From: an uncultured bacterium
Lineage (GTDB): Bacteria; Babelota; Babeliae; Babelales; Babelaceae
Direction: 5' to 3'
NCBI GenBank assembly: GCA_963722385.1
Contig: CAVRKK010000002.1
Span: 608,001-672,000 of the forward strand
Length of the DNA stretch: 64,000 nt
The notes under the pieces are model-generated. The model did no database searches. It was not told the origin of the DNA and saw only the letters and a list, made by a program, of their open reading frames with translations. Within the stretch, counting starts at the first letter, position 1, and each line of letters begins with the position of its first letter. Shown here piece after piece: positions 30,567 to 54,711 of this stretch. Made by a program: the position numbers and the translations under genes.

Positions 30567-30572
30567 TACCTA

Positions 30573-30664
30573 ATTATATAACAATCCAAAACAAAGTCAA
30601 GCAAAATCTTACATATTTTACAAAATAAGACAAAATTGCTTATTTTTGCACAACATGATACAAT
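30573..30664. promoter_or_regulatory. Divergent sigma70 promoter pair
   Basis: Minus: TTGACT-16-TATAAT. Plus: TTGCTT-17-TACAAT with TG extension. Conserved at 46418..46509. Confidence 0.65.
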
Positions 30665-30702
30665 TTTTTGAATCTTTAAGATCATTACTCAGGGAGAAAA
30701 AA

Positions 30703-30933
30703 ATGGCAGGATATAGCTACAAAGAACTTCTGGATAAAAAGAATCAAGATGCAATCCGTGAGAGACTACTTATTGTTAACAGAAAAACAGGACTATCAAT
30801 TGCTAAAATGTCCGCTCAAATTGGTATAAGCCCAACGACATTACGCTCATTTCTGGTCGATGAAAAGAAAGCAATATATGCGGTTATATCAAAAATCTTG
30901 GGTTTTATTGAACAACACGAAATAGACAACTGA
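30703..30933 (+). CDS. Small XRE/Cro-type HTH protein
   Basis: GLSIAKMSAQIGISPTTLRSF; ATG after GGGAG RBS. Confidence 0.75.
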   Translation: MAGYSYKELLDKKNQDAIRERLLIVNRKTGLSIAKMSAQIGISPTTLRSFLVDEKKAIYAVISKILGFIEQHEIDN

Positions 30934-35720: not shown

Positions 35721-36214
35721 TGCGCCATGGCTTTGGCCTTCTAGAGCTTGCAATCGCTCTTGGCGTACTCGCACTTATTGCTCTCTTGACGCTGCCAACG
35801 CTGCGTATCATTGATGAGCTGACTGTATCACTCGCGGTCGATAATCTTTATGCGCAGTTGCTCAGCCTGCAACAACAGGCGCGCTTACTAGGCAAGATCC
35901 GTACCATGACGGTGTTTCCAGAAGCTGGCTCATATAGCGTGGCATCAAAAAAGTATGTACTGCCACCCCTTGTACGCTTTGGCATTATCCCCGGCGTCAA
36001 AGGACCGCCATCAAAGCCGCTCAACACCCTTAGTAAGCCGGTAACGTTTACCGACCAGGTGATCACGTTTCATCCTTCGGGAGCTTTACAATCAGGAGCG
36101 CTCTACCTTACCGATCAAGCGGGGCTCTGTCTTTATGCGGTGACCGTGGGGGTAGCGCCCTATTCATATGTCCGGCGATATGCCTATCAAGATGGCTGGG
36201 TACTCATGTCATGA
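35720..36214 (+). CDS. Pseudopilin / minor pilin (GspH/FimT-like)
   Basis: Prepilin motif MRHG|FGLLELAIAL. Confidence 0.8.
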   Translation: MRHGFGLLELAIALGVLALIALLTLPTLRIIDELTVSLAVDNLYAQLLSLQQQARLLGKIRTMTVFPEAGSYSVASKKYVLPPLVRFGIIPGVKGPPSKPLNTLSKPVTFTDQVITFHPSGALQSGALYLTDQAGLCLYAVTVGVAPYSYVRRYAYQDGWVLMS

Positions 36215-38967
36215 AGGCACTCATTACGCTCATGGCAATCACCATAGGTAGCGCGCTCGGCTTTTGTCTAATCGGCCTTCAGCTGAGCCATGATGAGCAC
36301 GTCAAAAAGGTTGTCGAGCAGCACGTAATGGCGACGCTCAGCAGAGGGCTTGGCTGTTCTCTCAACGGGCGCCTCGAAAGCTTTAACCTGCTAACCGGTA
36401 TGTTAGAATTTTCCGATGTTATTGCCGAGGACCGACGAAAGAGCTGGCGATGGCATGCGCAGCAGGCCTTTGTATCTTTTTCTCGCTTTGAGCTTCTCTT
36501 GCATCGTGTTTTGAAGCTCCACATCACGCTTGCCGCCGTTGAAGCATTTTCGCATCTTAATGGTATACAATTAGCGATTACTTCGCACATTAAAGCCTGG
36601 ATTTCATTGCCTGCCGGCCCGCTTGTTACTTCGCTCAAGTCGCTTCGCCTGCGTGATGCCCGGATAAGAATTATTGAGGCGGGCGGCCAGGCTCCGTCAG
36701 AATCATCAGCCACCCTGCATGGGCAGCTAACCATAACCGCGCACGCGGTGCAAATCGCTGCCGCTTTGGGAGACGCAACGGTCACACGGCACGGGGTACG
36801 ATACTTTGAAGCAGCAAGCGGTTTATGTCGTGCTTATATTCCACGAACAGATGCTCATCGATCCAAAGACGTTCTTCACCTTGATCTTAACGCGGTGGGT
36901 AAGTGTGCCTGCCTGCCCTCCTTTAAGCCGCAGTGCTCATTAACGGCGTCATGGCAATCAGGCAAGGTGAGTGGAATATTTTATAGCGAACACCATGAAA
37001 TGGACGCCAAGCTGGTCGGTGACACAAGTGCGGTAACCGTTACCGGCAAGGTGCCCTATAGGTATGTAGCCGATTTTATGGGCCACGCCGAGCCGGAAGC
37101 ATTTGTCGGTGATGCTGCCTATGTTCTTACGTCATCGCCGAAAGCGTTAGCGCTTAAGAAGGCAAGTGGCACGGTCACGCTCAACGCTGGTCGCTACCGC
37201 GCTTATGACGTACCCCAAGGCACGCTGCAATTTAAAACAATGCCCGACACCCTACAAGGCGAGGCGGCGCTTTCTTATGGTGGCCTGCGCGTTGGAGGTG
37301 ATTGGCAATGGGATATGCAGACACGTCGCGGGCATGCCACGTGCGCTAACGTTAGTGAATTTGTTCTACCTGGAGTTGGCGTTTGTCCTTCGCAGGCTGC
37401 TCATGCCGATATTGCACTTGATGCAGCAGGAATTATAGAGGGTTCCTATGGTATTGATCTTGACCAGAACGATGAAACAATAAAGGGAAACTTTAAGATT
37501 GGCAAGCATGGCGGCGAGGTTACGATTGCTCGGGGCGAGGGGTTACTGGCGCTTAGCGCAAAATTTGAGCCGCGTATGCACCTTTCTGCACTTGATTACA
37601 AAGAGGGAGATGGGCAGCAAGCAACCGTTATCTGCTCAGCAGATGGCGCTTTTGAGGGAAGAATCGAGTATGGGATTCTTAAAAAGCTTACCAAGCTGCT
37701 CAAGGTGGGCAATATGGAGGTAGGAGGCGAAAGAGCGGCGTCGGTTCGCGGTAGGCTCAAGGGCGATAAGGTGTTTTTTGAGAGCGAATTTGATCAAGCA
37801 CGCATCCGCTTACCCGAGACGTATACAATCGTGCAAGCAGGCCAGCTACGGGGTGAGCTCGACTGGCGAGCGGGTTCGCTTATTCTGCACGAGGGGCAGG
37901 TGACGCTTAACAAGGGAAAGATCCGAATCCCTCATGCCAACCTCTCCTGCCCACGTTATCGCGACTTTATATCCGGCGACGTTCCTGCGCCGCCCATTTT
38001 TGTGCATATGCCGCTTATTCTGGACGACTGCTTTGTCCACTGGAAAAAAGATATTATTGGGAGCGTTTCTGGCATCCTTACGCTAAGCATTACCGATGAG
38101 CAGGCGCTGATCAAAGGGTATGTTACGCTCGACAAGACCCATATACAGAGCAACGTGCTCTCATCTAAGTTTGAGGCTGAGTTGACCAAGGGTATTATGA
38201 TGGCACGTGATAAGCCGCTCGCCAACGTGAAGCTTGATATTGGCATCATTTCGGGAACACTGGTACGCGTCAAAACAGCGTTTTTGAAGGCCGATGCACT
38301 CTTCCGGCTTGCGCTGCACGGGACCTTGGCTATGCCTGAGCTCTCTGGGAGCATACAGCTTGCCGAAGGGGTGCTCAATTTTCCCTATCAGCCACTTTAT
38401 ATTACGCATGGGCGTATTTATTTCTTTGCGCATCAGCTTCAAGACCCGACGCTGGAGCTTGCTGCCAAGAACAAGATAAAGAATTATGTGGTCACCATGA
38501 ATGTAACAGGCTCGTTACGCCAGCCGCTTATAACGTTTACTTCATCGCCCGAACTGACCGAGGGTCAAATTATCACGTTGCTCTTAGGCGGCGCCGAGGA
38601 CGGGTCGTTGTTTCTTGCCATGCCGGTTTCGCTTACGAACAGTATTGAGAACCTGATGTTTGGGCCAGCCGAGTCGACTTCGCAGCTCCAGCGATACCTG
38701 GGCAATCTCTTCAAGCCGCTCAAAAGTGTTCGCATCGTCCCGCGTTTTAGCGATGAGTCTGGGCGAGGCGGGCTGCGCGGCTCGCTTATGATCGAGGTTA
38801 ATGATAATTTGCGAGCGACCATTCAGAAGAATTTTGATTTATCAGAGGACGTGCTTATCGAAGTGGAGTACGGCCTGCCCAATAATATGGTCATACGCGC
38901 CGTAAAAGACGAGCGCGGCGATCTGGGAGCCGAGCTAGAAAAAGTGTGGAAGTTCTCACGCCCGTGA
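36211..38967 (+). CDS. TamB/AsmA-like protein
   Basis: N-terminal anchor, beta-rich; GTLAMPELSG, VTGSLRQPLITFTSSPEL...IITLLLGG. Confidence 0.75.
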   Translation: MKALITLMAITIGSALGFCLIGLQLSHDEHVKKVVEQHVMATLSRGLGCSLNGRLESFNLLTGMLEFSDVIAEDRRKSWRWHAQQAFVSFSRFELLLHRVLKLHITLAAVEAFSHLNGIQLAITSHIKAWISLPAGPLVTSLKSLRLRDARIRIIEAGGQAPSESSATLHGQLTITAHAVQIAAALGDATVTRHGVRYFEAASGLCRAYIPRTDAHRSKDVLHLDLNAVGKCACLPSFKPQCSLTASWQSGKVSGIFYSEHHEMDAKLVGDTSAVTVTGKVPYRYVADFMGHAEPEAFVGDAAYVLTSSPKALALKKASGTVTLNAGRYRAYDVPQGTLQFKTMPDTLQGEAALSYGGLRVGGDWQWDMQTRRGHATCANVSEFVLPGVGVCPSQAAHADIALDAAGIIEGSYGIDLDQNDETIKGNFKIGKHGGEVTIARGEGLLALSAKFEPRMHLSALDYKEGDGQQATVICSADGAFEGRIEYGILKKLTKLLKVGNMEVGGERAASVRGRLKGDKVFFESEFDQARIRLPETYTIVQAGQLRGELDWRAGSLILHEGQVTLNKGKIRIPHANLSCPRYRDFISGDVPAPPIFVHMPLILDDCFVHWKKDIIGSVSGILTLSITDEQALIKGYVTLDKTHIQSNVLSSKFEAELTKGIMMARDKPLANVKLDIGIISGTLVRVKTAFLKADALFRLALHGTLAMPELSGSIQLAEGVLNFPYQPLYITHGRIYFFAHQLQDPTLELAAKNKIKNYVVTMNVTGSLRQPLITFTSSPELTEGQIITLLLGGAEDGSLFLAMPVSLTNSIENLMFGPAESTSQLQRYLGNLFKPLKSVRIVPRFSDESGRGGLRGSLMIEVNDNLRATIQKNFDLSEDVLIEVEYGLPNNMVIRAVKDERGDLGAELEKVWKFSRP

Positions 38968-38987
38968 GTGTACTCATCTGCATTCAA

Positions 38988-39159
38988 TCGAATCGCCTGT
39001 GCGGCTGGCACGCCTATGCTGCGGGCAGCAGGAGCGTGCTCCTGCACCTGTCGATTTTGTTTCTTTCTTTACATGCTTATTTCTCGATTTTGTTTAATGC
39101 CATAACCGTGCGGAGCGCATGATTACGGCAAACGCAATTCTCCTCACGGAGAATAGAAA
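38988..39159. repeat. Multi-hairpin REP/MITE-like element, partial copy A
   Basis: Homologous to 60674..60848 with three covarying hairpins. Confidence 0.7.
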
Positions 39160-39324
39160 GTTTCTTATATGTCAACAGCAGCTTCTCTATTAAAAGAGGA
39201 CTAAAATCTTTAATATATATTAGCTTCTTTTTACTTAATGTACAAAACAAAGATAAGAGCTTAGAGGGGAATACACACTGTTTTATCTTTTGATACTTTT
39301 CGGCGATCGTGTTTGTTATTCATA

Positions 39325-39501
39325 AGAAGAAAAGTGCTGTACGAAGCTCAAAAGCCGTTTGATTTGATCTTAAAAAATGAACATGGTACATTTTGGCGTC
39401 GACTTATAGATATGTTCAGGAACGGTGAATTAGATTCAAGCTTCACGTTAAGCACAATTCAGACGATTCTTGCAACACTCAGTATCAGATTTAATGATTA
39501 A
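39325..39501 (+). pseudogene. Serine recombinase C-terminal fragment spanning the left attachment junction
   Basis: KVLYEAQKPFDLILKNEHGTFWR matches KVLYDANKPFDLIINNEDRVLWR of 49829..51289 and continues RLIDMFRNGELD... Confidence 0.85.
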
Positions 39502-39525
39502 CAGATAGTTTACTTAAGAATTCAA

Positions 39526-39552
39526 GCGAGGAGGTTAGTTAACCTCCTCGCT
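39526..39552. terminator. Hairpin between recombinase tail and convergent hydrolase
   Basis: GCGAGGAGGTTA-GT-TAACCTCCTCGC. Confidence 0.6.
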
Positions 39553-39608
39553 AACTCCTCAGCTTAGAAAAATAGCCACATCGATGCCTTAGAGCTATTC
39601 ATGATTGA

Positions 39609-40763
39609 CTAACTATTCTTTTCATGTTTTGTTATGGTCTTTGTAACCCACGCAGATATTGTGTACAAAGCAACAGGAGCCATCGTCTCCTTAATAGTCG
39701 CGTACTCCGACAAAGCACCCGTTTGACACGTTTGAAATACATGGTTCAGATTAGGCAATTCAATGAGTGTATACTCCTTATGCCCAGATATTTCAAAAGC
39801 TTTTTTAAGAATTGGAAATATCTTAGCTGGCGAAGTAGTCATATCAAGACTTCCTACAATCGCTAGTGTAGGAACCTTAATGGCCTCCAGAATAGGCCTT
39901 GGATCATAATTCAAATAAAAGTGATATGCAGGCGAAGTTACTATATTCACATACATATCAATCTTCGGTTCGGTAAATGCCCAAGATAGCCTTTCTGATT
40001 CACGCTTCATTGAATCTGGAAGCTTAGCCCAATAATGAACTATCGCATCTCTAATGTGCTGACCAGCAGCTTGTTTATCAATTTCTTGCTGAGCTATTGT
40101 GTAAATAGCAGATCTCAAGGATTTATCACCAGCGATAAATTCTTCACTTGCACCATCTACTCGTAGCTGCAAACCTGCTTGATAAACAATATTGTCTACA
40201 CCAAGTGCAATATATGGTGCCATAAGTACCATAAAATTTACATCTTTAGATTGTGCTGCAACCATAGTAGCTATAAGGCCACCTTCACTAAGTCCAATAA
40301 GTCCTATCTGATTCTTGTTAATCTCGCTTCTTGTTTTGAGATATTCAATTCCAGCAAGTACATCTTGAGCTAGTTCCTTGCTTGTTACATTTGCCCAATT
40401 TCCAGTAGACTTACCAACACCACGTTTGTCATATCGCAGTACTGCTATACCTTGCGAAGTTAAATGTTCTGCAAGAACTTTAAAATATTTGTGCCCCATA
40501 CCTGTTACGTCACGGTCATTTGGCCCATAGCCAGCAATAAGCACAACTGCAGGAAAGGTTTCATTGGCACTATCAGGGATTGTTAATGTTCCCGAAAGTG
40601 TTATTCCTTCTGCATTATTTGTATAACTAACTTCTTCTTGCTTGTGTTGAATTTTATGTGCTTGATTTGATTGCATTGTTTGTGCCTTCTCAAAGGATAT
40701 TATCAAAAAAGTTCCCATAATAATGGATAAAACTTGAAACATTTTAAACATGTTTACATCCAA
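39609..40763 (-). CDS. Secreted alpha/beta hydrolase
   Basis: LSGTLTIP, GYGPNDRD, RYDKRGVG, GLSEGG, LNHVFQ. Confidence 0.9.
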   Translation of the reverse strand: MDVNMFKMFQVLSIIMGTFLIISFEKAQTMQSNQAHKIQHKQEEVSYTNNAEGITLSGTLTIPDSANETFPAVVLIAGYGPNDRDVTGMGHKYFKVLAEHLTSQGIAVLRYDKRGVGKSTGNWANVTSKELAQDVLAGIEYLKTRSEINKNQIGLIGLSEGGLIATMVAAQSKDVNFMVLMAPYIALGVDNIVYQAGLQLRVDGASEEFIAGDKSLRSAIYTIAQQEIDKQAAGQHIRDAIVHYWAKLPDSMKRESERLSWAFTEPKIDMYVNIVTSPAYHFYLNYDPRPILEAIKVPTLAIVGSLDMTTSPAKIFPILKKAFEISGHKEYTLIELPNLNHVFQTCQTGALSEYATIKETMAPVALYTISAWVTKTITKHEKNS

Positions 40764-41049
40764 AATAACTAGAGACTAAAAAAAATATAATAGAAATATT
40801 TGTTTTAAATTTGCCTGAATAAAATGTTTTATTGCAATATGCGTTACATTAAAACATTAAATACTAATAATCACCATATTTCTGATGATTTTTATGCGCG
40901 GCAAACAGAAGAAGAAAAGACTTTCACAACACACCTCATAATCAGTTCAGTATCCTTAAGATACCTAAACATTCATAATTTAATCTCTCATAATAGTGTT
41001 TTAATGTCAAATCCAATAGACAAGACTTTAACGGTCCTCACATACAAAT

Positions 41050-43071
41050 TTAAAGAATTATCTCTTTTTGAGGTAAACTTACAGCATTGTTTATCTGCAA
41101 ACTGATTTCTGGAAACTGTTCGCTTATACGTTCCAAATTGCCATTCTGACCTTTAAGATATTTATCAAAAAACTGAACTAATAACGCTCGGGTTATTTCG
41201 ATCCCGCAGGTTGGATCAAGTTTAAGCGGTTGATCACCTTTCCATGGAATAAAAAGAAAAAGGTCAGTAAATGATCCATGTAAAGCATCTTTAATAACAG
41301 CATAATGAGAAGGACCCGTCATAGCATGCCATAGTTGGCGCATACGCTCTTCTTTTTCTTTTTTTTGTAATGAGCTCGTTACAAAAAGCGCAGGTACTGA
41401 AAACCCTTGTGTGGCTAATCCTTGCGGTTTACCATCAAGATCTGCTACCGCTTTACATATACCCAACACGCAGCAAGTAGCTAGAGAAGTGCCGCCGCCA
41501 AAAGAATGCCCAAACATTCCCAAACGCTGAAGATCGAGCTTGCCTGTTAAAATACCCTGAGGATCATTGCGGTTGATTTGCTCAAGCTCCTTTACAATGA
41601 ATCTTATATCATCAACCCATATTCCTTGTTCGCGTATAGATGCTTCCGCTTCGCTTTTCAATTGCCATAACTCTTGCAAATCCTTAAGACTCATTGCAGC
41701 TATTTTTTTGCCATTAGACAAAATAACTGCATCCGTAACATAAGGGTAAGCAATCCCAACTACAATGTACCCATGGCTTGCTAACTCCTCACATAAACTT
41801 GTATAAAAATGTATAGGAGACCCAAAACCTGGTGAAAAAATAATAACCGGATAAGTAGCACACGATTCTGAAACTTTGCCACTCACATAAGCATGCGTCT
41901 TCATTCCATCAAGAAAGGAAAGCTCATTAAGCGTTATTTTAAAATGTTCTTTTAGACCCTCTTTTATGGCAGCAGTACTGAGCGGATTAATATACCAAGC
42001 CTTTGTTGCATGAGGCTTGAGTTCAGCTGGATACCATATCTGAGCAACCAATTCTCGATTATCACTAACATTCTGAGAGTGAGCCTCTCTTCTACTTTTA
42101 TCAACCAGATGATAAGGCGTTGTCCCAATCGAAAGTTTTCCCATCGGAATCGGTAGTTTTCCTGTGTTCATAACCGAACATGCACCGCGTGCTTTTTCAG
42201 ACTCGTCTGAAAGTTTAAATTTCTTTAGTATTGTGCGTTGTGCATCATTCAATTGAAACGTATCTATTTTCAAAGTTCTTTGATTATCAGTTAACTTCAG
42301 AAGCTTAGGGAGCTCAGTTTTAATACGATCAAAAATTCTATCCATAACATCCTTTGGAGAGATAGAAATTTTTTCCAGGAAATGTGCAATAGTACTGCTT
42401 AGGTGACCAAAAGTAATATGCGGCTCATAGCGATATTGCTCGCTAAAAGAAGAATCATACAATTGCTTGCCATGTGATTTTTTGTATATTTCGTTGGCAT
42501 GAAGCAATGCATCTTTGATAGCTGCCCGCAATGACATCAAACCTTCTTTTCCATCATCAATTTTTATAACCAACTCCTTGATGCTACCAAAAAAATCAAA
42601 TCGATCGCTTATTTTTACCACAGATAGCGGCCCCGTTCCTTTATGGTGCTTTTGCATATCCGTCAGAGCATCAACCAATAAATACTCATTGTGCTCATCC
42701 ATTTCACCCAAGTAGTACAAGGTAATCCATAATCGTTCTTTTTTCACGAAACTTCGTGCAAAATCCTTCACCACATCTATTTTATTGAATCGTTTTAAAG
42801 CATAATTTACTTCCTGATCAATGATCTTATTTATCTCTTCTCCGATTCTTCTTTGCAATTCATAGACGAAACTGTTTGGAGAAAACTCCGTTACCACCAT
42901 AGGACCTGGCACACTAAATTTTCTTTTAGAAGCTTCAGCTACACGATAAACATCTGACGATGGAGGTATATGAGCATCTTTAACATAACATTGATTTGCG
43001 ATCATGAATGCAGCAAATAGCATAAAAAACAATGTAAAGCCAAAATTAAACATTTTCAAACGTTCAACCAT
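41050..43071 (-). CDS. 2H-phosphoesterase-like domain fused to PAF-acetylhydrolase-type alpha/beta hydrolase
   Basis: WITLYYLG and PHITFG; QIWYP, FSPGFG, ELASHGY, GHSFGG, HGSFTD. Confidence 0.8.
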   Translation of the reverse strand: MVERLKMFNFGFTLFFMLFAAFMIANQCYVKDAHIPPSSDVYRVAEASKRKFSVPGPMVVTEFSPNSFVYELQRRIGEEINKIIDQEVNYALKRFNKIDVVKDFARSFVKKERLWITLYYLGEMDEHNEYLLVDALTDMQKHHKGTGPLSVVKISDRFDFFGSIKELVIKIDDGKEGLMSLRAAIKDALLHANEIYKKSHGKQLYDSSFSEQYRYEPHITFGHLSSTIAHFLEKISISPKDVMDRIFDRIKTELPKLLKLTDNQRTLKIDTFQLNDAQRTILKKFKLSDESEKARGACSVMNTGKLPIPMGKLSIGTTPYHLVDKSRREAHSQNVSDNRELVAQIWYPAELKPHATKAWYINPLSTAAIKEGLKEHFKITLNELSFLDGMKTHAYVSGKVSESCATYPVIIFSPGFGSPIHFYTSLCEELASHGYIVVGIAYPYVTDAVILSNGKKIAAMSLKDLQELWQLKSEAEASIREQGIWVDDIRFIVKELEQINRNDPQGILTGKLDLQRLGMFGHSFGGGTSLATCCVLGICKAVADLDGKPQGLATQGFSVPALFVTSSLQKKEKEERMRQLWHAMTGPSHYAVIKDALHGSFTDLFLFIPWKGDQPLKLDPTCGIEITRALLVQFFDKYLKGQNGNLERISEQFPEISLQINNAVSLPQKEIIL

Positions 43072-43272
43072 AATAAATCCTTAATTATAATAACCAGTTT
43101 AGATGATATGATCCCTAGACTGCAACGCTTATTAATTTGAGCTATCATTTCAGAGAAAAACGCTACACCTCATTAAAATGTTTTTTTAGTTCCCTATTGA
43201 TAGATGGGATAACTCGGCTTTTGCCTCACGGGACTTCAGAATGGCTGAATAGCAGGCCCAAACAGCCAATTC

Positions 43273-44675
43273 TTGGTTGTCTTATGTCCTAAGATTAAGG
43301 AATACCGGGAGTCTCTTTCGGCACTTAGCATCAAGCTTACGAGCTACGGTGGCTGGCCGATCAGCGTAGAATTTAAGCCATCTCCATACAGCAAGACACA
43401 GTATTCATATGCCCCGCTCAAGCCCGTTACTGTAGCTGGAGACACGTATAATCTTGCTGATATGGATGCCAAAGCATACTTGGATCTTTATCGTCGCCAT
43501 CCGCAAGCAATTGATCCTGAGGACATGGATATGATTCAGGGGCGCATTCTGTTAAATACCGATTTTCTAATAGCTTCGCCGCAAGGGCCGAAAATTTATT
43601 GTTATAATTTTATAACTAACAGCGATCCCGAGCAGTATAAAAAAGAGCTCAAGCGTATTATAAGCCGCATGATGCTTGAGTGGTTCACGAGCCCAACGAG
43701 CAAGTTTTTCCAAGAGCGTTATAAAATTGCACACGCAGCGCTCACGAAGTATTCTCAAAAGAAAAGGGGGTTCTTATACCGGGTACATCAGTAACGACAC
43801 AGCCGAGCGAAGCTCAAGAGGCTCAAGCTTTTTGGAGCAAATATCACGCATTGCAGCAAAAAAAGCGTACCGATTTTCGGGCTTTGGTGCTCTCAAGGGG
43901 TTATCATGACTGGAAAGCAGACTTACTCGATGAGGTTATGCATGATAAAGAGGAGAGCGCTTTGCTTGCGTTTCTTGGTGACGATTTATTAGCAGCAGGG
44001 TACGCTTTGGTGATACTATTGTTTCCTGAAGAGTACACCGATAATGAATTGCTATACGCCTATAACTTTTTGAGGGATCTGCGAAGGGTTCCGCTGGCCT
44101 CACGTGCTGAAATTGATCCCATGTGGATCAATGGAGAAAATACACGTTTGCTCAAAGAGCTTATACGGAAGAATCTAGAGTTCCAGAAGACGCCGCTCAA
44201 GCAGGAAATATTTCTTCTCAATATTGTATTTCAGCCGCACTGTTTGTCGGGATATCTTGGCCATGTCGCGCTTGATAAAAAGCCTTATCTTGCCGGTATG
44301 ATAAAGCTGCTAGCATACAATGATCTTCGAGCTAGACATAATGAAGCATTGGCTGTATCAGTCGATGGCATTGATAATAGTTGGCTCCAAGAGCAGGATT
44401 ATTTAATTTTTAAGCAGGCTTTGGAAACATACTTTACCGATAAAAAGAATACCGTACCTAAACAGCAGCTGTTTCTTATTAATCTTGTGAAAATTGCCAC
44501 ATATCGTGATAGTCTCGATGTTAATGAATTATATGATAACTGTGTTACAAGCGATCGTGTGCAGCTCAACGCCTATAACATGCTCCGCCAGATGCTCAAC
44601 AAGCCCCGTATTCCTTCGCTCGATCATATCAATATGACCTGGCTCAACAGTCTCCCGGTCAATAAATTTGCCTAA
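43273..44675 (+). pseudogene. Frameshifted hypothetical gene with ~87-aa internal repeats
   Basis: Two ORFs join across a frameshift at AAAAGGGGG (~43762-43770); no clear start; ends at the tnpB remnant. Confidence 0.55.
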
Positions 44676-44687
44676 GAATATCAAACA

Positions 44688-44765
44688 ATCAACTATAAGT
44701 TTGCATTTTACCGTTTTTACCCTTTCCATGCCACCTATTCTCACATCTTCCTCATCCTATGCAAT
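44688..44765 (-). mobile_element. IS200/IS605 tnpB 5'-end remnant, copy 2
   Basis: GAATAGGTGGCATGGAAAGGGTAAAAACGGTAAAATGCAAACTT closely matches 28051-28096 (MERVKTVKCKL). Confidence 0.6.
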
Positions 44766-44927
44766 GAAAAGCATGAGCAATTCCTCTCAAATCCTTAAAA
44801 AAGCTCATCAACAGCTGCTAAAGCTTGACGTTAAAGGCTGTATATCCTTGACGCGGAGTAAAAAATTTACTAGCATATTCCACACTAAAATTCTACCTTT
44901 TAGGCCAAGAAGAAGGACAAAATCAAT

Positions 44928-46169
44928 ATGAGGAAGCTATTTTTACTGCTCCTAGCAGCCTTATCAATTGCACAAAAAATAGTAACCATGGAGGGCGAAA
45001 GCTCATTAGGCATCCTTAGAGAACAATCTTTGATTTTAAGTAGCACTACGCCAGCAGCGGGAATTAACATAACAGCGGAAAACAGCCAAAGGCAAAACCT
45101 TTCTTTGCCTTTCAATTTAAGCAATAATGAGCCAAGATCATATCCTCGCGAGATATACTGTGTAATACTCGCAGGGGGAGTGGGCGAACGCTTATGGCCT
45201 TTAAGCAGAAAAAATAAGCCTAAACAATTTCTACCATTTACAAACAAATTATTTGTCGAAATGGTTCTCGATTGGTTGCAAACCATTGAGGGGAATAAGC
45301 ATCACTGGGTTGTCACAACTGAATCTCTAGCAGCCTCTATTAAGGAGGTCCTAGGGGAAAAAGTTGAACATATTGTTACTGAACCAGATCGTCGCAACAC
45401 TGGCCCTGCCGTTTTACTCGCTTGCCATCAAATAGCGGCCATACATCCCGATGCTTTCGTTATTTTTCTACCAGCTGATGAGGATATTCCTGAATACGAA
45501 AAATTTGGTGCAGCAGTCAATATAGTCTTTCAACAAACCACATCGCCAAACCTCATTCTTTTTGGCATTCGACCTCGTTATCCGGCAACAGGATATGGTT
45601 ACATAGAATACGAAGAAGAACTTAATCAACAATCTATCGTGCCAGTATTAAGCTTTCACGAAAAGCCCTCGCTGGATAGGGCGAAAGAGTATCTTGAAAG
45701 AAGAAATATGTTATGGAATAGTGGCATCGTATGTGGGCAAGTATCTTCCTTTTTAAGGCAATATCAGCAATATGCCGGTGAAATGTATGAAAAAATGCTT
45801 AATTTCCTTAACGGTAGCACCTCTTATCATGAACTACCTGCCCTCTCTATAGATTACGCTATTTTAGAGAGGAGCCAACAGATTTCTGTTTTGCCAGTTG
45901 ATTTTCAATGGGAACACATAGGCGATCTTGCTAGCTACCTTGCCCTACGGTCAGCTCAACAAACAACAGCAACAGTATTGCCTATTAATAGCAATAATAA
46001 CCTCATACATACAACCAATTTACAACTTATTGCCTTAGTTGATGTAAATGATCTCTGCGTGGTGGAAGAAGATGGAATACTTCTTGTCATTCCAAGAGGA
46101 AGTTGTGAAAAAATCAAAGCGGTTATTTCACAGTTAAAAAAAGATACGGGACAAGAAAGGTTTCTTTGA
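44928..46169 (+). CDS. Mannose-1-phosphate guanylyltransferase-like protein with signal peptide
   Basis: ILAGGVGERLWPLSR..PKQF, RNTGPA, TGYGYI, FHEKP, WNSG, SIDYAILE. Confidence 0.88.
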   Translation: MRKLFLLLLAALSIAQKIVTMEGESSLGILREQSLILSSTTPAAGINITAENSQRQNLSLPFNLSNNEPRSYPREIYCVILAGGVGERLWPLSRKNKPKQFLPFTNKLFVEMVLDWLQTIEGNKHHWVVTTESLAASIKEVLGEKVEHIVTEPDRRNTGPAVLLACHQIAAIHPDAFVIFLPADEDIPEYEKFGAAVNIVFQQTTSPNLILFGIRPRYPATGYGYIEYEEELNQQSIVPVLSFHEKPSLDRAKEYLERRNMLWNSGIVCGQVSSFLRQYQQYAGEMYEKMLNFLNGSTSYHELPALSIDYAILERSQQISVLPVDFQWEHIGDLASYLALRSAQQTTATVLPINSNNNLIHTTNLQLIALVDVNDLCVVEEDGILLVIPRGSCEKIKAVISQLKKDTGQERFL

Positions 46170-46314
46170 TGTAGTCAAAATACTCTGACCCTAATTTTTT
46201 CATGCCCAGATTTTTTGGCCTATTCCACTTTTTAATATCAAGGATTTCAAAAAGCTGCTTTAAATCTGATTTTGATAATAGCGAAAAGTACAGCAAACTG
46301 CTGGATAATTATAA

Positions 46315-46411
46315 ACAATTAAGCCCGCTGTTAAGGCGGGCCTGTTCAGGTGGTACCCGGCCATGTTTCATGCTCGCGGCCACCTTATTTTTTGTATGTT
46401 GATGCAAGTCA
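46315..46411 (-). ncRNA. Candidate structured sRNA, copy 2
   Basis: TTGACT-16-TATAAT at 46445-46418; same stems and TGAAACATGGCCGG core as copy 1. Confidence 0.55.
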
Positions 46412-46660
46412 AAAAATATTATATACCAATTTTGTGCAAAGTCAAGCAAAATCTTACATATTTTAACAAAATATAATAAATTACTCGCCCTTAGCCAATA
46501 TGATACAATTTTCTCATCCCCCAAAACTCACTTCAGATGAAAAGATGGCAAGATATACCTAAATTTGAGATGGGGGCGGGGCCGCCTTGTATTCACATAT
46601 AACAATAATATATATCCGCTCCAGATCGCGCAATAAATGTTGTATAAATATATATTAACG

Positions 46661-46936
46661 ATGAACACAAATAATGAAGTAACACGGATGATAGTTGAAC
46701 TTCCAAAAAGCTTACATAGGAAGGCCAAGGTGGTAGCCGCTTTAAGGGGTATCAGCATAAAACAGCTTCTTATTGCAGGATTAAATCAGCAACTAGAGGA
46801 GTCCGCAGAATGCCTTGATTGTAAAGGCAGCGAATTCAATGAGGAAACAATGAAGATAATGGGGGAAATTCTTCGAGGTGAAGGGATTATTGAAGCTAAA
46901 GATACTAAGGATCTCCTCAAAAAACTAAGAGAATAG
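46661..46936 (+). CDS. RHH antitoxin with DinJ/RelB-like C-terminus
   Basis: TRMIVELPKSLHRKAKVVAALRG; FNEET...DLLKKL; upstream of yafQ remnant. Confidence 0.75.
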   Translation: MNTNNEVTRMIVELPKSLHRKAKVVAALRGISIKQLLIAGLNQQLEESAECLDCKGSEFNEETMKIMGEILRGEGIIEAKDTKDLLKKLRE

Positions 46937-46939
46937 ATA

Positions 46940-47069
46940 ATGCTGATACCTCGTTTTACGCATCAATTTAAAAAAGATCGAAAGTTCTCTGAAAAACGGG
47001 GGTCGAGAAAAAGATAATACCCATATCACTTTTACTCGTATTGCGACTCACTCAGGTCTTAAATTTTGA
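46940..47069 (+). pseudogene. yafQ: YafQ-type toxin with central deletion
   Basis: N-terminal MLIPRFTHQFKKDRK..KRG joined out of frame to C-terminal ITFTRIATHSGL. Confidence 0.7.
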
Positions 47070-47390
47070 CTATTCAACTTACCTCACTGAGAACATATAA
47101 AAAAGAAACGCTTCTTGTATTTATCGAAAATCGCATTATACTCATTCTCAATTAACCGAATCAATTTACGAGGAACAAACCAATGTTAATGCTATCACTA
47201 TTTCGAGCTATAGCTGCTCTGAAAATGGGCAGAACTTGAGTTGGTTTGTGCTTGTTGCTTAATGCGATAGCCCTTGTAGATTCAGCTTGCCTCCTTTTCA
47301 GTTACCATAATCCCCAATCAATATATTTTTTTCATTGAGTATTGATCGAAAAGACGTGATCAATGCTGTGACCATCTTTAGGAAATACCT

Positions 47391-47633
47391 ATGGGCAAAC
47401 CTAATTTTTCAATTGCGCCCGATAGAATCTTGACCGCTGAGGAGCGCGATAGGTTAACACATTTTGTTACTTTGTTGATAACCATTGACACACGATTGCG
47501 AAAGACAAGTAAGCGCTCAAAGGCAAGCAAAGCAAAGTCGGAACTATATCATAAGTCCATTCTCGAATTGACCTTATTTTTCTTCTTAATTGCTTTATAC
47601 TTGAGCTATCTCAATGAGCAAAAAAGCGATTAA
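47391..47633 (+). CDS. Small hypothetical protein upstream of rep
   Basis: 80 aa, RBS AGGAAA, overlaps rep start. Confidence 0.5.
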   Translation: MGKPNFSIAPDRILTAEERDRLTHFVTLLITIDTRLRKTSKRSKASKAKSELYHKSILELTLFFFLIALYLSYLNEQKSD

Positions 47634-48747
47634 CATGGTGGACACTGTTATTTTAATCTTACATAAAGATATGTTCAAAATCGGTGCCCCCGAAGCATTT
47701 TCCCCTTCAGCAAAATGGGTTGCAAATTCGCCTACGAGCCTTGCTATTCGTTCAAAGCAAAATCCCACAAAAAAAGAACTACAGGCTGGCATCTATAAGC
47801 CGCGACTTACTTTGACCAATCGAATCAAGCCCACAGGAGGCGTAGAATTGATCCTTAAAGTTGAGTTTTCATTGCCGAAGCTTCTTTTCGGCAATAACTT
47901 TGACGAGCTTGCAAGAAAGGATTTTGCCGCGCTAACACGAAAATTAGCCGTCATCCTGAATACCATGGGCATTTCCACGACTGCTGCAGCAATCGAACAA
48001 GCAGATGTTTCGGGTATCCATTATTCTAAAAATATTCCGTTAACTGATGGCTCTATTCCTTTTCAGTATATTAACAAAATTAGAGAAGCGAATATTCAAG
48101 AAGCTCTCGATAAAAGTAAGACTGAATATAGGATCGGACATAGCTTTAAATGGCATTGCAATTCCTACGAGGTTATTTTTTACGATAAAATTAAGGATCT
48201 CGAGGCAGCAAGAAAAAGCAATAAGCGATCCCTGGAAAAAGACAGCGAGCTGCAACTTGAGCTCTTTGAGCGCTTCAAAAAGCAAAAAAAGTTTGAGCTT
48301 TTACGTATGGAAGTACGACTTAATAAGCGGCAAAAAGCTAAAAGCCTATTTAAAAAGCTGGGCATTAAATCTGATTTCACCTTCAAGAGTTTATTCAAAG
48401 TTGCGATAGCAAAGAGAGTATTACTGCATTATCTTGAGCAAATCGAAAGCAAAAGACCGGCAATACTTGATTACTCTGCGATAGGTGATAAAAACCTACT
48501 TGCTACCTTGGTTACCCATAACGCTGAGCTCAATAGCAAATATATCTTGCAAATATTTGGGCTAAAAAAGGCCCTTGAGTCTTTTGATATTAGAGAGTTG
48601 CGTGCGATGCTTTCGCGCTTTAGCAACCGCACCTGGTATCGGTTAATTGCAGACGCAAACAAAATAAAATTACTTCCAGCAATTAGGCCTTTGGAAGTTA
48701 TAAAAGGATGCATCAGTAAGTTTAAACCATTGCGAATATCGACATAG
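47614..48747 (+). CDS. Phage/plasmid replication initiator (gpII/X, Rep_trans-like rolling-circle type)
   Basis: MVDT, EFSLPKLLFGNN, FYDK, LLRMEVRL. Confidence 0.72.
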   Translation: MSKKAINMVDTVILILHKDMFKIGAPEAFSPSAKWVANSPTSLAIRSKQNPTKKELQAGIYKPRLTLTNRIKPTGGVELILKVEFSLPKLLFGNNFDELARKDFAALTRKLAVILNTMGISTTAAAIEQADVSGIHYSKNIPLTDGSIPFQYINKIREANIQEALDKSKTEYRIGHSFKWHCNSYEVIFYDKIKDLEAARKSNKRSLEKDSELQLELFERFKKQKKFELLRMEVRLNKRQKAKSLFKKLGIKSDFTFKSLFKVAIAKRVLLHYLEQIESKRPAILDYSAIGDKNLLATLVTHNAELNSKYILQIFGLKKALESFDIRELRAMLSRFSNRTWYRLIADANKIKLLPAIRPLEVIKGCISKFKPLRIST

Positions 48748-48797
48748 TTCCACCATAAAAGTTCAAGGACTGTTTCGCAAATCTTTGCAAAACTTAT

Positions 48798-49193
48798 TTA
48801 GCGCCGTACTTCTGGCTGATAGGTGACAGCTTCCTGATATTCAGTCCTTTTGAGTTTCTTGGCTTTACTTTCCTGAGGCACTTTTTTCGAAGGAACAATA
48901 GTGAACTCAAAGCCCAAAGCTTTTAATAAAACGATAAGTGTATCCAGACGAGGATTCCCACGCGAAGATAGGGTTTTATATAAACTTTCACGATTTAATC
49001 CTGACTTTTCAGCCAGACAACTCATGCCACCTTGTGCATTCACAATATCTCTAAGAGCCAATAGAAGAACTTTTTTTGCGTTTTTATCACTTGGAGTTAC
49101 ATCCTCCAAGGCTGCGTTAAGGTAGCCAGCAGCTTTTTTAGTATCTTTAAGTCTTCTATAGAGCCATTCTTCATGATTTGTATACTTTGCCAT
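48798..49193 (-). CDS. HTH antitoxin (addiction module antidote)
   Basis: YLNAALE, GGMS.LAEKSGLNRESLYKTLS..GNPRL. Confidence 0.9.
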   Translation of the reverse strand: MAKYTNHEEWLYRRLKDTKKAAGYLNAALEDVTPSDKNAKKVLLLALRDIVNAQGGMSCLAEKSGLNRESLYKTLSSRGNPRLDTLIVLLKALGFEFTIVPSKKVPQESKAKKLKRTEYQEAVTYQPEVRR

Positions 49194-49527
49194 TTTTCTG
49201 TTCTCTTTCCAAATAATGATAATAATATTTATTTGCTTTACTGATATCGCTTTTCTGTTCTTTCTTAATCCCAGCCATTATAATTAGCAGTTGATCTTTA
49301 GCAATTTTCACATAATAAACTCGGTAACCAGGGCCATAATCAATTACCAATTCACATATTCCGTTCGCAGTTTTAATGGGTTTACAATTGTTAAAAATAC
49401 CAGATCTCAATCGACCAATGTAAGCAAGAATTTTGTCCTGTGTTTTCTCATCGGGAATGCCTTCTAGCCATTTCTCAAAAATATCAATGTTATTGGGCGT
49501 CTTGTAATGAATAATTTTGAAAACCAT
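49171..49527 (-). CDS. RelE/HigB-type toxin (toxin-first operon)
   Basis: FEKWL, ELVIDYGPGYRVYY, Q..DI..A. Confidence 0.9.
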   Translation of the reverse strand: MVFKIIHYKTPNNIDIFEKWLEGIPDEKTQDKILAYIGRLRSGIFNNCKPIKTANGICELVIDYGPGYRVYYVKIAKDQLLIIMAGIKKEQKSDISKANKYYYHYLEREQKNGKVYKS

Positions 49528-49559
49528 CTACTCCCCGAATCTTTTGCAAATAACGATAA

Positions 49560-49588
49560 CAATGTAGCATATTGGCTACAATTTGTAA
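49560..49588 (-). promoter_or_regulatory. TA promoter with palindromic operator
   Basis: TTTACA-17-TACATT overlapping TGTAGC-N6-GCTACA. Confidence 0.65.
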
Positions 49589-49828
49589 AGCATTGATTAG
49601 GCATCAAGGATGCAAACTCAAATATTGATGAGCTGGATATGTTGAAATTCTTGTTAACAAAATCGGCATCATAATAGGCCTGCTATATGGGCTGACTTAA
49701 AGGAATATTGTATATACGGAAGGCAGAGTTCGCATTCACATACCCGCTATATAAGATTGCTATAGCTGCAAAACGCGTCCTTTATGATAAAATAGCAAAA
49801 TATTAATCCAATATTATCGGGACTACTA

Positions 49829-51289
49829 ATGAAAGCAATTCTTATCGCTCGCGTAAGCACGGAGGAGCAAAGGGAAGCCGGCAATTCTTTACCAGCACAA
49901 GTAGCACGTCTAGAAAAATATTGTTTGAGCAAGGGCTTTACTATTTGGAAGACCTATAGTTTTGACGAAAGTGCCTATAAAGCACAGCGTAGCGAGTTTG
50001 ATGCGATCTTGGACATGATTAATAGCCAAAAAGAGAAAATTGTTGTGTGCTGCGATAAAGTAGATCGGCTCACGCGCAATATCTTTGATAAGCGCGTATC
50101 GCTTCTCTATGAGAAAGCGTTAAACGACCAAGCTGAGCTACATTTTGTTTCTGAAGGACAGATCATAAATAGCTCTATTTCTGCGGCCACAAAATTTCAG
50201 TTTAGCATCAGTCTCGGGCTTGCAAAATATTACTCAGATGCGATTAGCGATAACGTTAAGCGAGCTACCGAGCAAAAGCTGCGTAAGGGCGAATGGATAT
50301 CTAAGGCTCCCCATGGATACGATTACGTAACATTATCTGATGGCAAAAAAGACCTCAAAATAGTAGAGCACGAGGCATACCTGGTTAAGAAGGCTTTTGA
50401 GCTTTATGCTACCGGCGCTTTTTCTCTCAATCTCTTGCTCAAAAGATTAAAGGAAGACTTTGGTGTTGTCTGGAACAAGAGCTTTCTGGGCAAGCTTTTT
50501 ATAAACCCCTTTTATTACGGCATAATGGAGATTAAAGGCAAGCAATATCCCCATAAGTACCCACCACTTATAACTAAATCACTCTATGACCAAGTACAGA
50601 AAACAAAAAGCAACTTTAATAAGCGGAAAAAGTTCAAGTATGCTGGCCTGCCTTATATTTATCGAGGGTTGCTTCGCTGTGGCGATTGCGGACTCGCCAT
50701 AACCCCAGAGAAGCACAAGGGCTTTGTTTATTACCATTGTACCCAATATTATGGCAAGCATGATGCTACCTGGTTTCGGGAAGAAAAGATAACCGAGCTA
50801 TTAGGAAGCGTATTTAAGCGCTTACAAATGTCTGACAATATCACAAACCAGATTAGTGAAGCTCTTTCTACGGATCATGCCAATAAAGCTAATTTTACTG
50901 AAAAAAGGCGTTCTGAGCTTACGACAGAGCATAAAAAATTAACCACAATGCTCGATAATCTCTACCTTGATAAACTACAAGGGAGTATTACTGAGCGCGA
51001 TTATGACAGATTTTACAGCCGACTCCGCGACCAACTCATTGAAGTTGAGTCCCATCTTGGCCAGTTAGAAGATGCAGATGAAACTTATTATAAAACTGCA
51101 AAGTGCTTACTGAAGCTCATATCCAAAGCCCACCAACTCTTTTTAAATTCGGAAATGGAAGAACGACGGTTACTTATCAAGCTCGTACTTTCGAACTTGA
51201 GGATAGAAGGAGAAAAGGTGCTCTACGACGCTAATAAGCCATTTGATTTGATCATAAATAATGAGGATCGTGTACTTTGGCGTCCCTAA
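49829..51289 (+). CDS. Large serine recombinase (integrase)
   Basis: ARVSTEEQ, ESAY, DRLTRN, P.GY, NPFYYG, zinc ribbon CGDCG..YYHC, coiled coil. Confidence 0.95.
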   Translation: MKAILIARVSTEEQREAGNSLPAQVARLEKYCLSKGFTIWKTYSFDESAYKAQRSEFDAILDMINSQKEKIVVCCDKVDRLTRNIFDKRVSLLYEKALNDQAELHFVSEGQIINSSISAATKFQFSISLGLAKYYSDAISDNVKRATEQKLRKGEWISKAPHGYDYVTLSDGKKDLKIVEHEAYLVKKAFELYATGAFSLNLLLKRLKEDFGVVWNKSFLGKLFINPFYYGIMEIKGKQYPHKYPPLITKSLYDQVQKTKSNFNKRKKFKYAGLPYIYRGLLRCGDCGLAITPEKHKGFVYYHCTQYYGKHDATWFREEKITELLGSVFKRLQMSDNITNQISEALSTDHANKANFTEKRRSELTTEHKKLTTMLDNLYLDKLQGSITERDYDRFYSRLRDQLIEVESHLGQLEDADETYYKTAKCLLKLISKAHQLFLNSEMEERRLLIKLVLSNLRIEGEKVLYDANKPFDLIINNEDRVLWRP

Positions 51290-51355
51290 GGGGATTTGAA
51301 CCCCTGTTTTCGCCGTGAAAGGGCGATGTCCTGGACCGGGCTAGACGATAGGGAC
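51278..51355 (-). tRNA. tRNA-Glu(TTC)
   Basis: GTCCCTA...TCGCC-CTTTCAC-GGCGA...GGTTCAAATCC...TAGGGACGCCA. Confidence 0.95.
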
Positions 51356-51363
51356 TTAAATTT

Positions 51364-51439
51364 TGGTGAGCCGCGTTGGATTCGAACCAACGACCCACAG
51401 CTTAAAAGGCTGTTGCTCTGCCAACTGAGCTAGCGGCTC
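51364..51439 (-). tRNA. tRNA-Lys(TTT)
   Basis: GAGCCGC...ACAGC-CTTTTAA-GCTGT...GGTTCGAATCC...GCGGCTCACCA. Confidence 0.96.
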
Positions 51440-51492
51440 GCTTTCAAGCTGTGTCAAAGAGTATGCTTATCTCCTAAAGAGACTATAGCTAA

Positions 51493-51520
51493 AGTATAGC
51501 CCTCTAGTACTTTTTGTCAA
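51493..51520 (-). promoter_or_regulatory. Sigma70 promoter for the tRNA pair
   Basis: TTGACA-16-TATACT. Confidence 0.65.
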
Positions 51521-51829
51521 TATATCTTCCGTGTAACGCGATAATAGCTCCAAGTTGCGTGCGAGACGCTTGCGGCCGAGCTTCTCTTTCCTTTCACAAA
51601 TTCTCTTTCAGACCGCTCGCTACGGCCAGCTGGTGTTTTTTGGGCTTTGGCGCTATTTCTTGAGCGGTATTGGTAAAGCTGGCCCAAAACAGCGCAAGAC
51701 AAAGTTGGTATTTGGAAACCATAGTGCCTCTCCCTTTTTAATAATGTGCCTCAAATATTCCTGCAGATTAGCCAATTTAACCAGATGTTATCGAAAGAAT
51801 TGGGCAAGCGGGGATCCCTTTCTTGCTTG

Positions 51830-52792
51830 TTACCCTAGGACATCCTTATGCATTTCAGATGGCTGACTCAAGTTAACCGGTACTGAGGTGCTATTGGCGA
51901 GCGAGGGATAGCCCATCTTTTGTCGTAATGCAGGAATAAACCTATCAATATATCGCTCAGTATCCTCAATGTCGTTGCCTAATTGTGCCCACCAGGCAAT
52001 TGCTTCAGGCGAGAGCTTGGCGTTCATGTTCTTTTGTTTTCTCCAAAGCTTTGTTTGATAAAAGTAGTCAACGCTTCTATTAATATAATGGTTGAGCCTC
52101 AACTCGTCCTTTCCCACTTTAACGCCTGGCTTTCCATTCGTGTAGACACATTGATGGCATGGCCATGAAAACTTCTCAAAGAGCTCTGGTTTAAGAATAG
52201 TTTTGAAAACATCAGTATTCATGCGGTTATCAGGCAAGGCAACCATATGCAGCGCCTCTATCATCAAGGTATCAACGGGAAGTTTTTGAATATTAGCAGT
52301 TCCGTAGATATGCCAATATACGTGCACACCAGGTGCTTCATCGTAAGCGGCTAAAACTTCTTGAACGGAGGCAGCTTTTGTTGGAACAAGATACTCATCA
52401 ATATCAATAAACCCAAGCCATTTCGCCTCTTGGCGAGCAGTCTCGCATGCGTGCTGATAGGCGGCTGCCTGCGTATATGTCGAAAAGGGGTATAGCGAGG
52501 TTGAATCAGGAGGTACGCGGGTAGGCCAATCGACAAGCGTAATAATCCCTTGGTCAATATAAGGGGTAAGTATTGTCATGAAGTCATCAGTGCTTATATT
52601 ATTATAAAGGTAGAAGTGCTCTACGCCGACCACAAGATGATACTCGATCCATAGCTTAAGATAAAGCGCTTCGTCCTTAAAAATGCTTGCGACGGCCAAT
52701 TGGTACTTTTTAGGCTGCGCTACCGTTTCTTCAGAAGAATTGATAAAGCCAGCCCAAAAGAATGCAAGGCAAATCGCGTATTTGGAAATCAT
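51830..52792 (-). CDS. GT92/DUF23-type glycosyltransferase with signal peptide
   Basis: IFKDEA.YL..WIEYH..GVEHFYLYNN.STD, Q..AY..C, WLGFIDIDEY, LNHY. Confidence 0.87.
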   Translation of the reverse strand: MISKYAICLAFFWAGFINSSEETVAQPKKYQLAVASIFKDEALYLKLWIEYHLVVGVEHFYLYNNISTDDFMTILTPYIDQGIITLVDWPTRVPPDSTSLYPFSTYTQAAAYQHACETARQEAKWLGFIDIDEYLVPTKAASVQEVLAAYDEAPGVHVYWHIYGTANIQKLPVDTLMIEALHMVALPDNRMNTDVFKTILKPELFEKFSWPCHQCVYTNGKPGVKVGKDELRLNHYINRSVDYFYQTKLWRKQKNMNAKLSPEAIAWWAQLGNDIEDTERYIDRFIPALRQKMGYPSLANSTSVPVNLSQPSEMHKDVLG

Positions 52793-52871
52793 AATGCTCT
52801 CCCCTTTATATAGTGAGCTTGACGCAAAGTATTCTGGAAACTTACGGTTACCATTCCTATATACTTATTGA

Positions 52872-54711
<1,840 letters not shown>

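Follow-up and report, generated by a model that had tools for sequence, protein, structure and literature searches.

Does insertion into the end of a tRNA gene alter the enzyme that an integrative element uses to insert itself? The question is raised by an element in a 64,000-nt stretch of DNA, here called the window, from an uncultured member of the Babelaceae (GenBank assembly GCA_963722385.1, contig CAVRKK010000002.1, positions 608,001–672,000). The element encodes a large serine integrase, and an earlier reading of the sequence (the original prediction) had proposed that integration and excision rewrite the C-terminus of this enzyme. As it had noted, the integrase ends in W-R-P-stop inside the antisense of the CCA end of a tRNA-Glu(TTC) gene. 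The integrase open reading frame (ORF; 49829–51289) overlaps the tRNA gene (51278–51355), which is the only tRNA-Glu called by ARAGORN genome-wide. The far end of the element encodes a 33-residue tail that is conserved as protein and that would complete the integrase in the excised circle. The features that define the two ends are as follows.

39324–39393, plus strand: approximately 23 codons left over from the 3′ end of an older, sister integrase gene, making up the left site's left arm
39394–39400, plus strand: left attachment (att) core TGGCGTC, which is the acceptor end and CCA of tRNA-Glu in antisense
39394–39501, plus strand: attP arm encoding the displaced integrase C-terminal tail (W-R and 33 residues; stop at 39499–39501)
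39525–39552, no strand assigned: 12-bp inverted repeat that follows the tail and separates convergent frames, a likely terminator
49829–51289, plus strand: large serine recombinase in its integrated (short) form, 486 aa, with Resolvase, Recombinase and zinc-ribbon matches above cut-off
51278–51284, plus strand: right att core TGGCGTC, within the last three integrase codons and the tRNA 3′ end
51278–51355, minus strand: tRNA-Glu(TTC), the target, intact (ARAGORN)
51364–51439, minus strand: tRNA-Lys(TTT), the upstream member of the tRNA pair

A putative attachment site within the integrase gene

The 9-mer TTTGGCGTC is found at 39392 and 51276, 11,884 bp apart. This pair, in the same codon phase, had been taken as the att core. 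Both copies are present, but the 9-mer is weak evidence alone: the genome of 1.6 Mb contains 14 copies, and only 7 bp of it, TGGCGTC, are common to the tRNA-Glu. As any copy would be 'in phase' once joined at the core, the case rests on the open, conserved tail. A short shared core, here of 7 bp, is a trait of large serine integrases. Joining the two ends at the core gives a 518-aa integrase frame, and the chromosome side retains an intact tRNA-Glu.

These positions suggest that attP sits in the last codons of the integrase gene and that the circle would carry the whole 518-aa gene. Recombination with the tRNA-Glu CCA end, at or just after the W codon, would leave the tRNA intact. It would move the last 33 codons of the gene to the far end of the inserted element, and the gene would gain a disposable end supplied by the tRNA sequence. 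In relatives at tRNA-Asn the left-hand W codon is often not kept, which places the crossover at the last base of this codon or just after it.

The similarity of the left site to positions 51207–51284 extends approximately 70–75 bp to the left (80.8% over 78 columns, E 6e-13), and rightwards of the two cores it falls to 22–30%. As the approximately 70 bp on the left read as an integrase C-terminus, the left site consists of an integrase 3′ remnant and the tail, not of chromosome and the tail. The remnant peptide is identical to homolog P0003 at 18/22 residues, compared with 14/22 for the element's own integrase. We conclude from these comparisons that the left site is chimeric and joins the element's tail to the scar that an older sister integrase left behind. 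The earlier proposal of integrated and excised isoforms stands in that attP lies inside the gene and two C-termini are encoded; the excised circle, and a role of the tail in direction or stability, are predictions. The element would have entered a tRNA end already scarred by an older sister element, or that sister would have decayed later.

No further tail was found in the window, including internally between 39.5 and 49.8 kb, so the left-end tail is the cognate arm of the element. In a genome of the same genus (G001), this core begins a closely similar tail (75% over 93 nt), 4.3 kb away from tRNA-Glu; the flank there is not integrase sequence, and the site is a plain attR.

Integrase scars were also seen at other loci of the family described below. 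At one (L114:5706–5799) the tail is preceded by 94 bp that repeat, without a mismatch, the 3′ end of the integrase gene of that same element, and other loci have copies of 40–150 bp at 78–93%. Short scars also occur directly at tRNAs, with 25 of 47 junctions lacking an intact gene.

Domains of the integrated form

The N-terminal serine catalytic domain of the integrase matches PF00239 (E 3e-20), and PF07508 (Recombinase) and PF13408 (Zn-ribbon) match above cut-off. Across 60 aligned sequences, the catalytic-domain residues R8, S10, D79, R80 and R83 and the zinc-ribbon residues C284, C287, C304 and H311 are invariant. A structure model was made of a natural long homolog, P0021, which is 64% identical to the window integrase (mean predicted local distance difference test score, pLDDT, 84.6). 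The best fold matches of the model are the SPbeta, Bxb1, phiC31 and LI integrase structures, and long helices at 335–415 correspond to the coiled coil of large serine integrases. The canonical domains in the model stop before the W, which makes it probable that the short form is catalytically complete. With its catalytic, recombinase, zinc-ribbon and coiled-coil domains kept, the 486-aa form probably still recombines. The tail was modelled as two helices at low confidence (pLDDT 39–54). The enzyme is not a Ccr recombinase of the SCC type, as it scored 75, 72 and 33 bits against the CcrA, CcrB and CcrC equivalogs, which have cut-offs of 900, 700 and 900.

Predicted binding of the tail to the body of the enzyme (residues 262–483 and the tail, both as alignments) gave a score of 0.14, under the mark, the controls not being folded. 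The idea that the tail is a copy of an internal integrase helix, prompted by a misalignment, was rejected (E 0.13; 5/60 shuffles equal).

Selection on the displaced tail

The tail is open to its stop and is followed by a hairpin, both as predicted earlier. The hairpin (z −3.4) was matched by 0 of 200 shuffles. As a feature of the family it was rejected, since only 8 of 44 related tails reach −10 kcal/mol or below, and the mean is −6.7 compared with −5.8 in shuffled sequences. A tail profile scored 32.5 bits at the left end, its single match in the window, and had no match in the reversed genome.

Alignment of homologs had been suggested as a check, and in a 38-row alignment (A4) the tail is kept as protein. 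For 44 non-redundant tails of the window's class, the ratio of nonsynonymous to synonymous variation (pN/pS) over codons 10–27 was 0.54 (bootstrap 95% 0.43–0.65), and in the shifted frames it was 0.93 and 1.51. Stops interrupt 0 of the 44 tails in the true frame and 36 and 41 in the other two. A cleaner set was gathered with DNA patterns in which every position beyond codon 9 is free (36 loci and 80 of 91). Its 115 junctions fell to 94 after a filter on upstream residues and codon 8, 74 when made non-redundant, 72 that were complete and 71 that were long enough. In this set 66/71 tails are open for at least five codons past the motif, compared with 44/71 and 45/71 in the other frames. No tail is as long as 40 codons, a length attained by 11 and 15 sequences when read in those other frames. 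Five clades of 3–7 sequences each gave pN/pS values of 0.40, 0.08, 0.61, 0.33 and 0.23.

The variation beyond the att arm is mainly synonymous. I21 is encoded by ATT (13), ATA (12) and ATC (12), and T23 by all four of its codons, while the conserved positions F8, L19 and T24 sit inside the tail. Judged by these patterns of substitution, the tail is under selection as a peptide. Its first nine codons may also be constrained as DNA.

A family at the ends of many tRNA genes

Of 8000 candidates scored, 3358 proteins passed E 0.001. Among the best 120 homologs, 76 stop no more than 4 residues from the invariant W, 32 continue into a tRNA-antisense-like peptide, seven have a W-x6-[FL][RT] tail and five end otherwise. 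A family match is contained in 28 of 61 related genomes, the window's own included. In 79 GTDB loci, taken from the best 80 of 425, there are 68 intact genes with a W junction, which is followed by tRNA-like antisense in 57, by a tail in seven and by other sequence in four. A pattern scan combining the gene end with the T-loop word gave at least 120 loci, and 58 of the 80 examined bear an ARAGORN tRNA, of at least 12 isotypes.

A same-strand tail lies 4–11 kb upstream of 19/29 tRNA-bound intact integrases that have at least 8 kb of upstream sequence, and 17 of these 19 tails carry an in-register core of 5–10 nt matching their own tRNA. Reversed loci, used as the control, gave no tail matches. 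The named homologs and loci are mostly from Candidatus Babeliales/Dependentiae, with some from Levybacteria and others, and represent several phyla by their record titles; they point to a Babeliae-like host.

These enzymes apparently form an undescribed clade of serine integrases that uses at least 12 tRNA isotypes; a limited literature search found no description of it. No relative was found in viral contigs with a single protein as query, and the 76 loci returned with an alignment were nearly all 22–31% identical. The best match in the plasmid set was 32.5%, and neither set held a free circular form of a close relative. Of four candidates in a region search for long-form integrases, only the query itself was returned.

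Further members were seen in the same genome (G000). A second element lies at tRNA-Gln (G000:C1:296951–305460), where a tail with core TGGCTG is 8.5 kb upstream of an integrase that is broken near its 5′ end. Behind tRNA-Asp (G000:C2:48450–57190) there are decayed integrase fragments and tail-like pieces.

Comparison with known systems

The division of an integrase gene by its own attP has already been published; what appears to be new here is a clade at tRNA ends with a conserved displaced tail. The original prediction had cited archaeal SSV-type tyrosine integrases as the precedent, which under-rated the published cases (Mx8, the rumA elements and DsiB, below). A close comparison is with the tyrosine integrase of the Myxococcus phage Mx8. 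Its attP lies in the gene, and integration replaces 112 C-terminal residues by 13 and leaves the enzyme less active (PMC4701971, PMC6070905, in the text accessible). The likeness lies in an att core inside the integrase frame and an open, conserved continuation at the far end. Here, however, the enzyme is a serine integrase rather than of the tyrosine family, the element is small and Rep-bearing rather than a phage, and the tail has 33 residues.

In Dehalococcoides, the 3′ end of the serine recombinase gene dsiB overlaps attL antisense to ssrA, and the islands form tandem arrays. The authors proposed that full function of DsiB is limited to the circle or to a position before the 3′ fragment of a neighbouring island, and the available text reports divergent C-termini and describes no conserved tail (PMC3146451). 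The target there is tmRNA, whereas the present family uses many tRNAs, has a Rep-like gene and carries a tail under selection. In the window the target is tRNA-Glu, with tmRNA elsewhere in the genome, and no homolog of DsiA, RecF, ParB or Mom, the other module genes of the Dehalococcoides islands, was found among the element's main ORFs scanned. By these features the integrase does not belong to the DsiB family. In streptococcal rumA integrative and conjugative elements (ICEs), att is inside the serine integrase gene, the excised form differs in length and C-terminus, and a functional difference was proposed, to judge from the portion of the text available (PMC4701971). Those elements are conjugative and target a protein gene.

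The original prediction had also called tRNA targeting mainly a tyrosine-integrase trait. Serine recombinases at tRNA 3′ ends are indeed described as rare, but they are not absent: the accessible text of PMC3218068 lists actinomycete ICEs (AICEs) of Mycobacterium at tRNA-Leu and phiRSM1 at tRNA-Ser. Each of these uses one tRNA, with no split gene described in that text, compared with the at least 12 isotypes found here. In 2015 the authors of Islander knew of no serine integrase at a tRNA, according to the part of the article seen (PMC4383910).

Canonical large serine integrases typically have their att sites outside the integrase gene. The window integrase resembles those of SPbeta, Bxb1, phiC31 and LI/A118 in domain order, fold and short core, but is only 13–20% identical to them. 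Tandem insertion into sites that carry a phage-type arm suggests looser site rules than those of the canonical enzymes. Integrative and mobilizable elements (IMEs) with Rep_trans or MobT show tandem accretion, decayed elements and chimeric att sites, and their serine-recombinase members disrupt dispensable genes, as far as the available text of PMC5704250 describes them. The present element is like IMEs in its small size, its toxin–antitoxin pair, its candidate Rep-like gene and its signs of tandem accretion, with a decayed element and a chimeric att site. In mycobacteriophage BPs, attP lies in the repressor gene, and integration removes 33 C-terminal residues with an ssrA-like tag, as the accessible text reports (PMC4557955). 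The gene split there encodes the repressor, and no ssrA-like end is present on the tails of the window's clade.

With at least 12 tRNA targets in several phyla, the family is a large natural series in which to test regulation by integrase-gene splitting, which the literature, in the parts accessible, proposes for serine integrases and leaves untested. Programs that find tRNA islands assume that tRNAs are used by tyrosine integrases alone, which the family contradicts, and cores of 5–10 nt would be easily overlooked. In pipelines that mine genomes for integrases the short form would be the one cloned, and the enzymes could then be rated as weak. The long form would act on sites present in nearly every bacterial chromosome and leave the tRNA unharmed.

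What the tail may do

We think it probable that the arrangement works as in Mx8, the short form being damped and excision relying on an ordinary recombination directionality factor (RDF). The tail would make the long form encoded by the circle the efficient integrase, and its loss would damp or alter activity once the element is inserted, as measured for Mx8. Excision would need the short form together with a small conserved ORF at 47391–47633. In large serine integrases integration is one-way, and an RDF is required for excision. That ORF makes the earlier remark that no RDF is recognizable in the element unsafe. Among 35 elements delimited by tail and integrase, which served for the gene-content counts, a profile of this ORF matches 30, with 0/35 matches in reversed sequence; the window's own ORF scored 20.6 bits. 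Seventeen of the 30 matched elements were seeds of the profile, and 13/18 non-seeds match, the window among them. The ORF had no match in Pfam, PHROG or NCBIfam and no usable Atlas match. In addition, intact integrases are rarer before a tail (4/28) than before a tRNA (22/47, p 0.005; 32/66 with unconfirmed tRNAs counted), a deficit expected if a permanent long form is costly.

Several points weigh against this reading. The deficit of intact integrases before tails is equally predicted by age alone, and as the genomes are kin the p values overstate the difference. With two phage-type arms at the left site, this copy may be locked in, since a canonical serine integrase may not recombine such a site with attL. 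The 44 tails were picked with a protein profile, which biases their pN/pS downwards and makes that test partly circular. In the P0021 model, the alignment is shallow over the tail, where pLDDT is low. That the small ORF acts as an RDF is guessed from how large it is, where it lies and how well it is conserved. Co-evolution of integrase and tail was rejected: the correlation of their distances, 0.52, is not above shared ancestry (Rep–tail 0.45; integrase–Rep 0.78).

The likelihoods given to the competing readings are not fully exclusive. One that we regard as unlikely makes the tail a directionality module acting in cis, so that the long form only integrates, the short form only excises and no RDF is needed. 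In its favour, the tail is a conserved peptide of helix/strand/helix pattern attached beside the zinc-ribbon domain, and the accessible literature on SPbeta describes a 58-residue RDF that acts on the zinc-ribbon domain and works when fused to the C-terminus. However, the conserved small ORF offers an ordinary RDF candidate, which weakens the argument from a missing one, and chimeric long forms with non-cognate tails are intact on chromosomes (7/68). An AICE is also excised by a serine recombinase with no identifiable RDF, and with no split gene reported in the text available, so a tail would not be required even if an RDF were lacking. A broader version, in which nearly every tRNA offers its CCA end to this widespread clade as attB, gene surgery toggles the direction and the T-loop doubles as the zinc-domain motif, seems to us just as doubtful. 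Were the tail nonetheless such a self-contained switch, and we are inclined to think it is not, direction would be set by gene surgery that exchanges an integrate-only enzyme for an excise-competent one.

The swap could also be incidental. The tail would then mildly aid folding or synapsis, the two forms would be equivalent in function, and the overlap would serve only to keep att linked to the integrase. No canonical domain is missing from the short form, antisense ends are tolerated at lengths of 1 to >60 residues, and a pN/pS near 0.5 is modest. However, a 33-codon frame that stays unexpressed until excision is open and conserved across Babeliales-like and Levybacteria-like records, which requires a real benefit in the circle, and we consider this explanation distinctly unlikely. 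That the tail is a degradation tag, making the circle's integrase short-lived and the inserted form stable, has a precedent in the BPs repressor (PMC4557955, as the accessible text describes it). Tails of the wider family end in Ala more often than neighbouring ORFs (22/72 and 16/165, p 2e-4), 12 of the 72 end in AA, and charged ends are scarce (5/72 compared with 50/165). By clusters, though, the Ala excess is only 8/38 (p 0.09). In the window's clade only 5/45 tails are Ala-final, with variable ends and the conservation inside the tail, and the window's own tail ends in Asp, all of which makes a tag quite improbable. The least credible reading, which we hold to be very improbable indeed, is that the conserved residues reflect an integrase binding site in attP and not a peptide. 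The T-loop word TCGAAC, which has 5.9 matches at offset 15 in 25 tRNA arms, recurs 5 nt further out in 8 sister-class tails (5.5/6 matches at offset 20), so the F-R-T/N residues of the tail may be partly DNA-driven. A shift of approximately 5 bp in the zinc-domain motif between attP and attB is described for large serine integrases in the accessible literature. In the window's class the shift is weak (2.3 at +5, 3.2 at +6; n=44), and no mirror motif of the word was seen in the coding arm. Conservation running through codons 10–27, past the 25-bp arm, with synonymous variation, and the frame tests of the DNA-pattern tails appear already to have largely refuted this reading.

One tail clade stands apart (Acidobacteria by record titles; L056, L065, L251, L299 and others). 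Its tails have 15–16 residues and an AA end, like an ssrA tag.

Other genes of the element

The gene content suggests a small integrative element with an integrase, a Rep-like gene, the small conserved ORF and cargo, which is probably self-replicating. The features between the tail and the integrase gene are as follows.

39609–40763, minus strand: cargo, alpha/beta hydrolase (S15/S33-like; Pfam)
41050–43071, minus strand: cargo, PAF-acetylhydrolase-like hydrolase (Pfam) with an N-terminal 2′-5′ RNA ligase-like stretch (below cut-off)
43273–44675, plus strand: cargo, a pair of ORFs (173 and 274 aa) with no family assignment
44928–46169, plus strand: cargo, mannose-1-phosphate guanylyltransferase-like (below NCBIfam cut-off)
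46637–46936, plus strand: candidate Arc-like (ribbon-helix-helix) regulator (phrog_582, E 7e-4)
47391–47633, plus strand: small ORF, conserved (profile), immediately before Rep; candidate RDF or regulator
47614–48747, plus strand: replication-initiator-like protein (Phage_CRI/G2P-like), 377 aa, a core gene of the family
48798–49527, minus strand: type II toxin–antitoxin pair, RelE/ParE-family toxin and HI1420-like antitoxin (TIGR02683, TIGR02684, above cut-off)

The Rep-like gene was found in 32/35 elements. Its product has an Atlas match of 0.97 to clusters with PF05144 on 25–31% of their members and a match to phrog_702 (E 7e-4), with none in Pfam. Homologs of the two ORFs at 43273–44675 are located in the tRNA-Asp array of G001. 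The GC content is 35–42% over 39–51 kb, compared with 43–54% at 31–38 kb. A 260-bp direct repeat (70%) is shared by the element (46314–46561) and the flanking chromosome (30468–30719).

Surroundings of the tRNA pair

The gene order around tRNA-Lys/tRNA-Glu is rearranged relative to related genomes (window 36211–39324 and 51440–52935). In the relatives tamB is approximately 3.6–8.5 kb upstream of the tRNA pair, whereas in the window the island lies between it and the pair, and the genes that separate tamB from the tRNA pair in relatives are here at C2:443–448 kb. A displaced relic at G000:C2:480800–482800 contains an integrase fragment and two frames that resemble the tail, together with three small genes, the orthologs of which (83–92%) lie directly at tRNA-Glu in G001. 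Adjoining it is a frame that we take to be transposase-like. The relic may be an older part of the tRNA-Glu array that was moved by rearrangement.

No terminator-like match was found on the minus strand before 49896, so read-through from the tRNAs could run antisense across the whole integrase gene. Upstream of the tRNA pair there is an 11-of-12 match to a sigma-70-like site (51520–51493, minus strand), although the scan found such sites no more often than in shuffles. Beside tRNA-Lys, a 74% copy of the 5′ end of a glycosyltransferase-92 gene is present (51615–51749, compared with 52685–52818).

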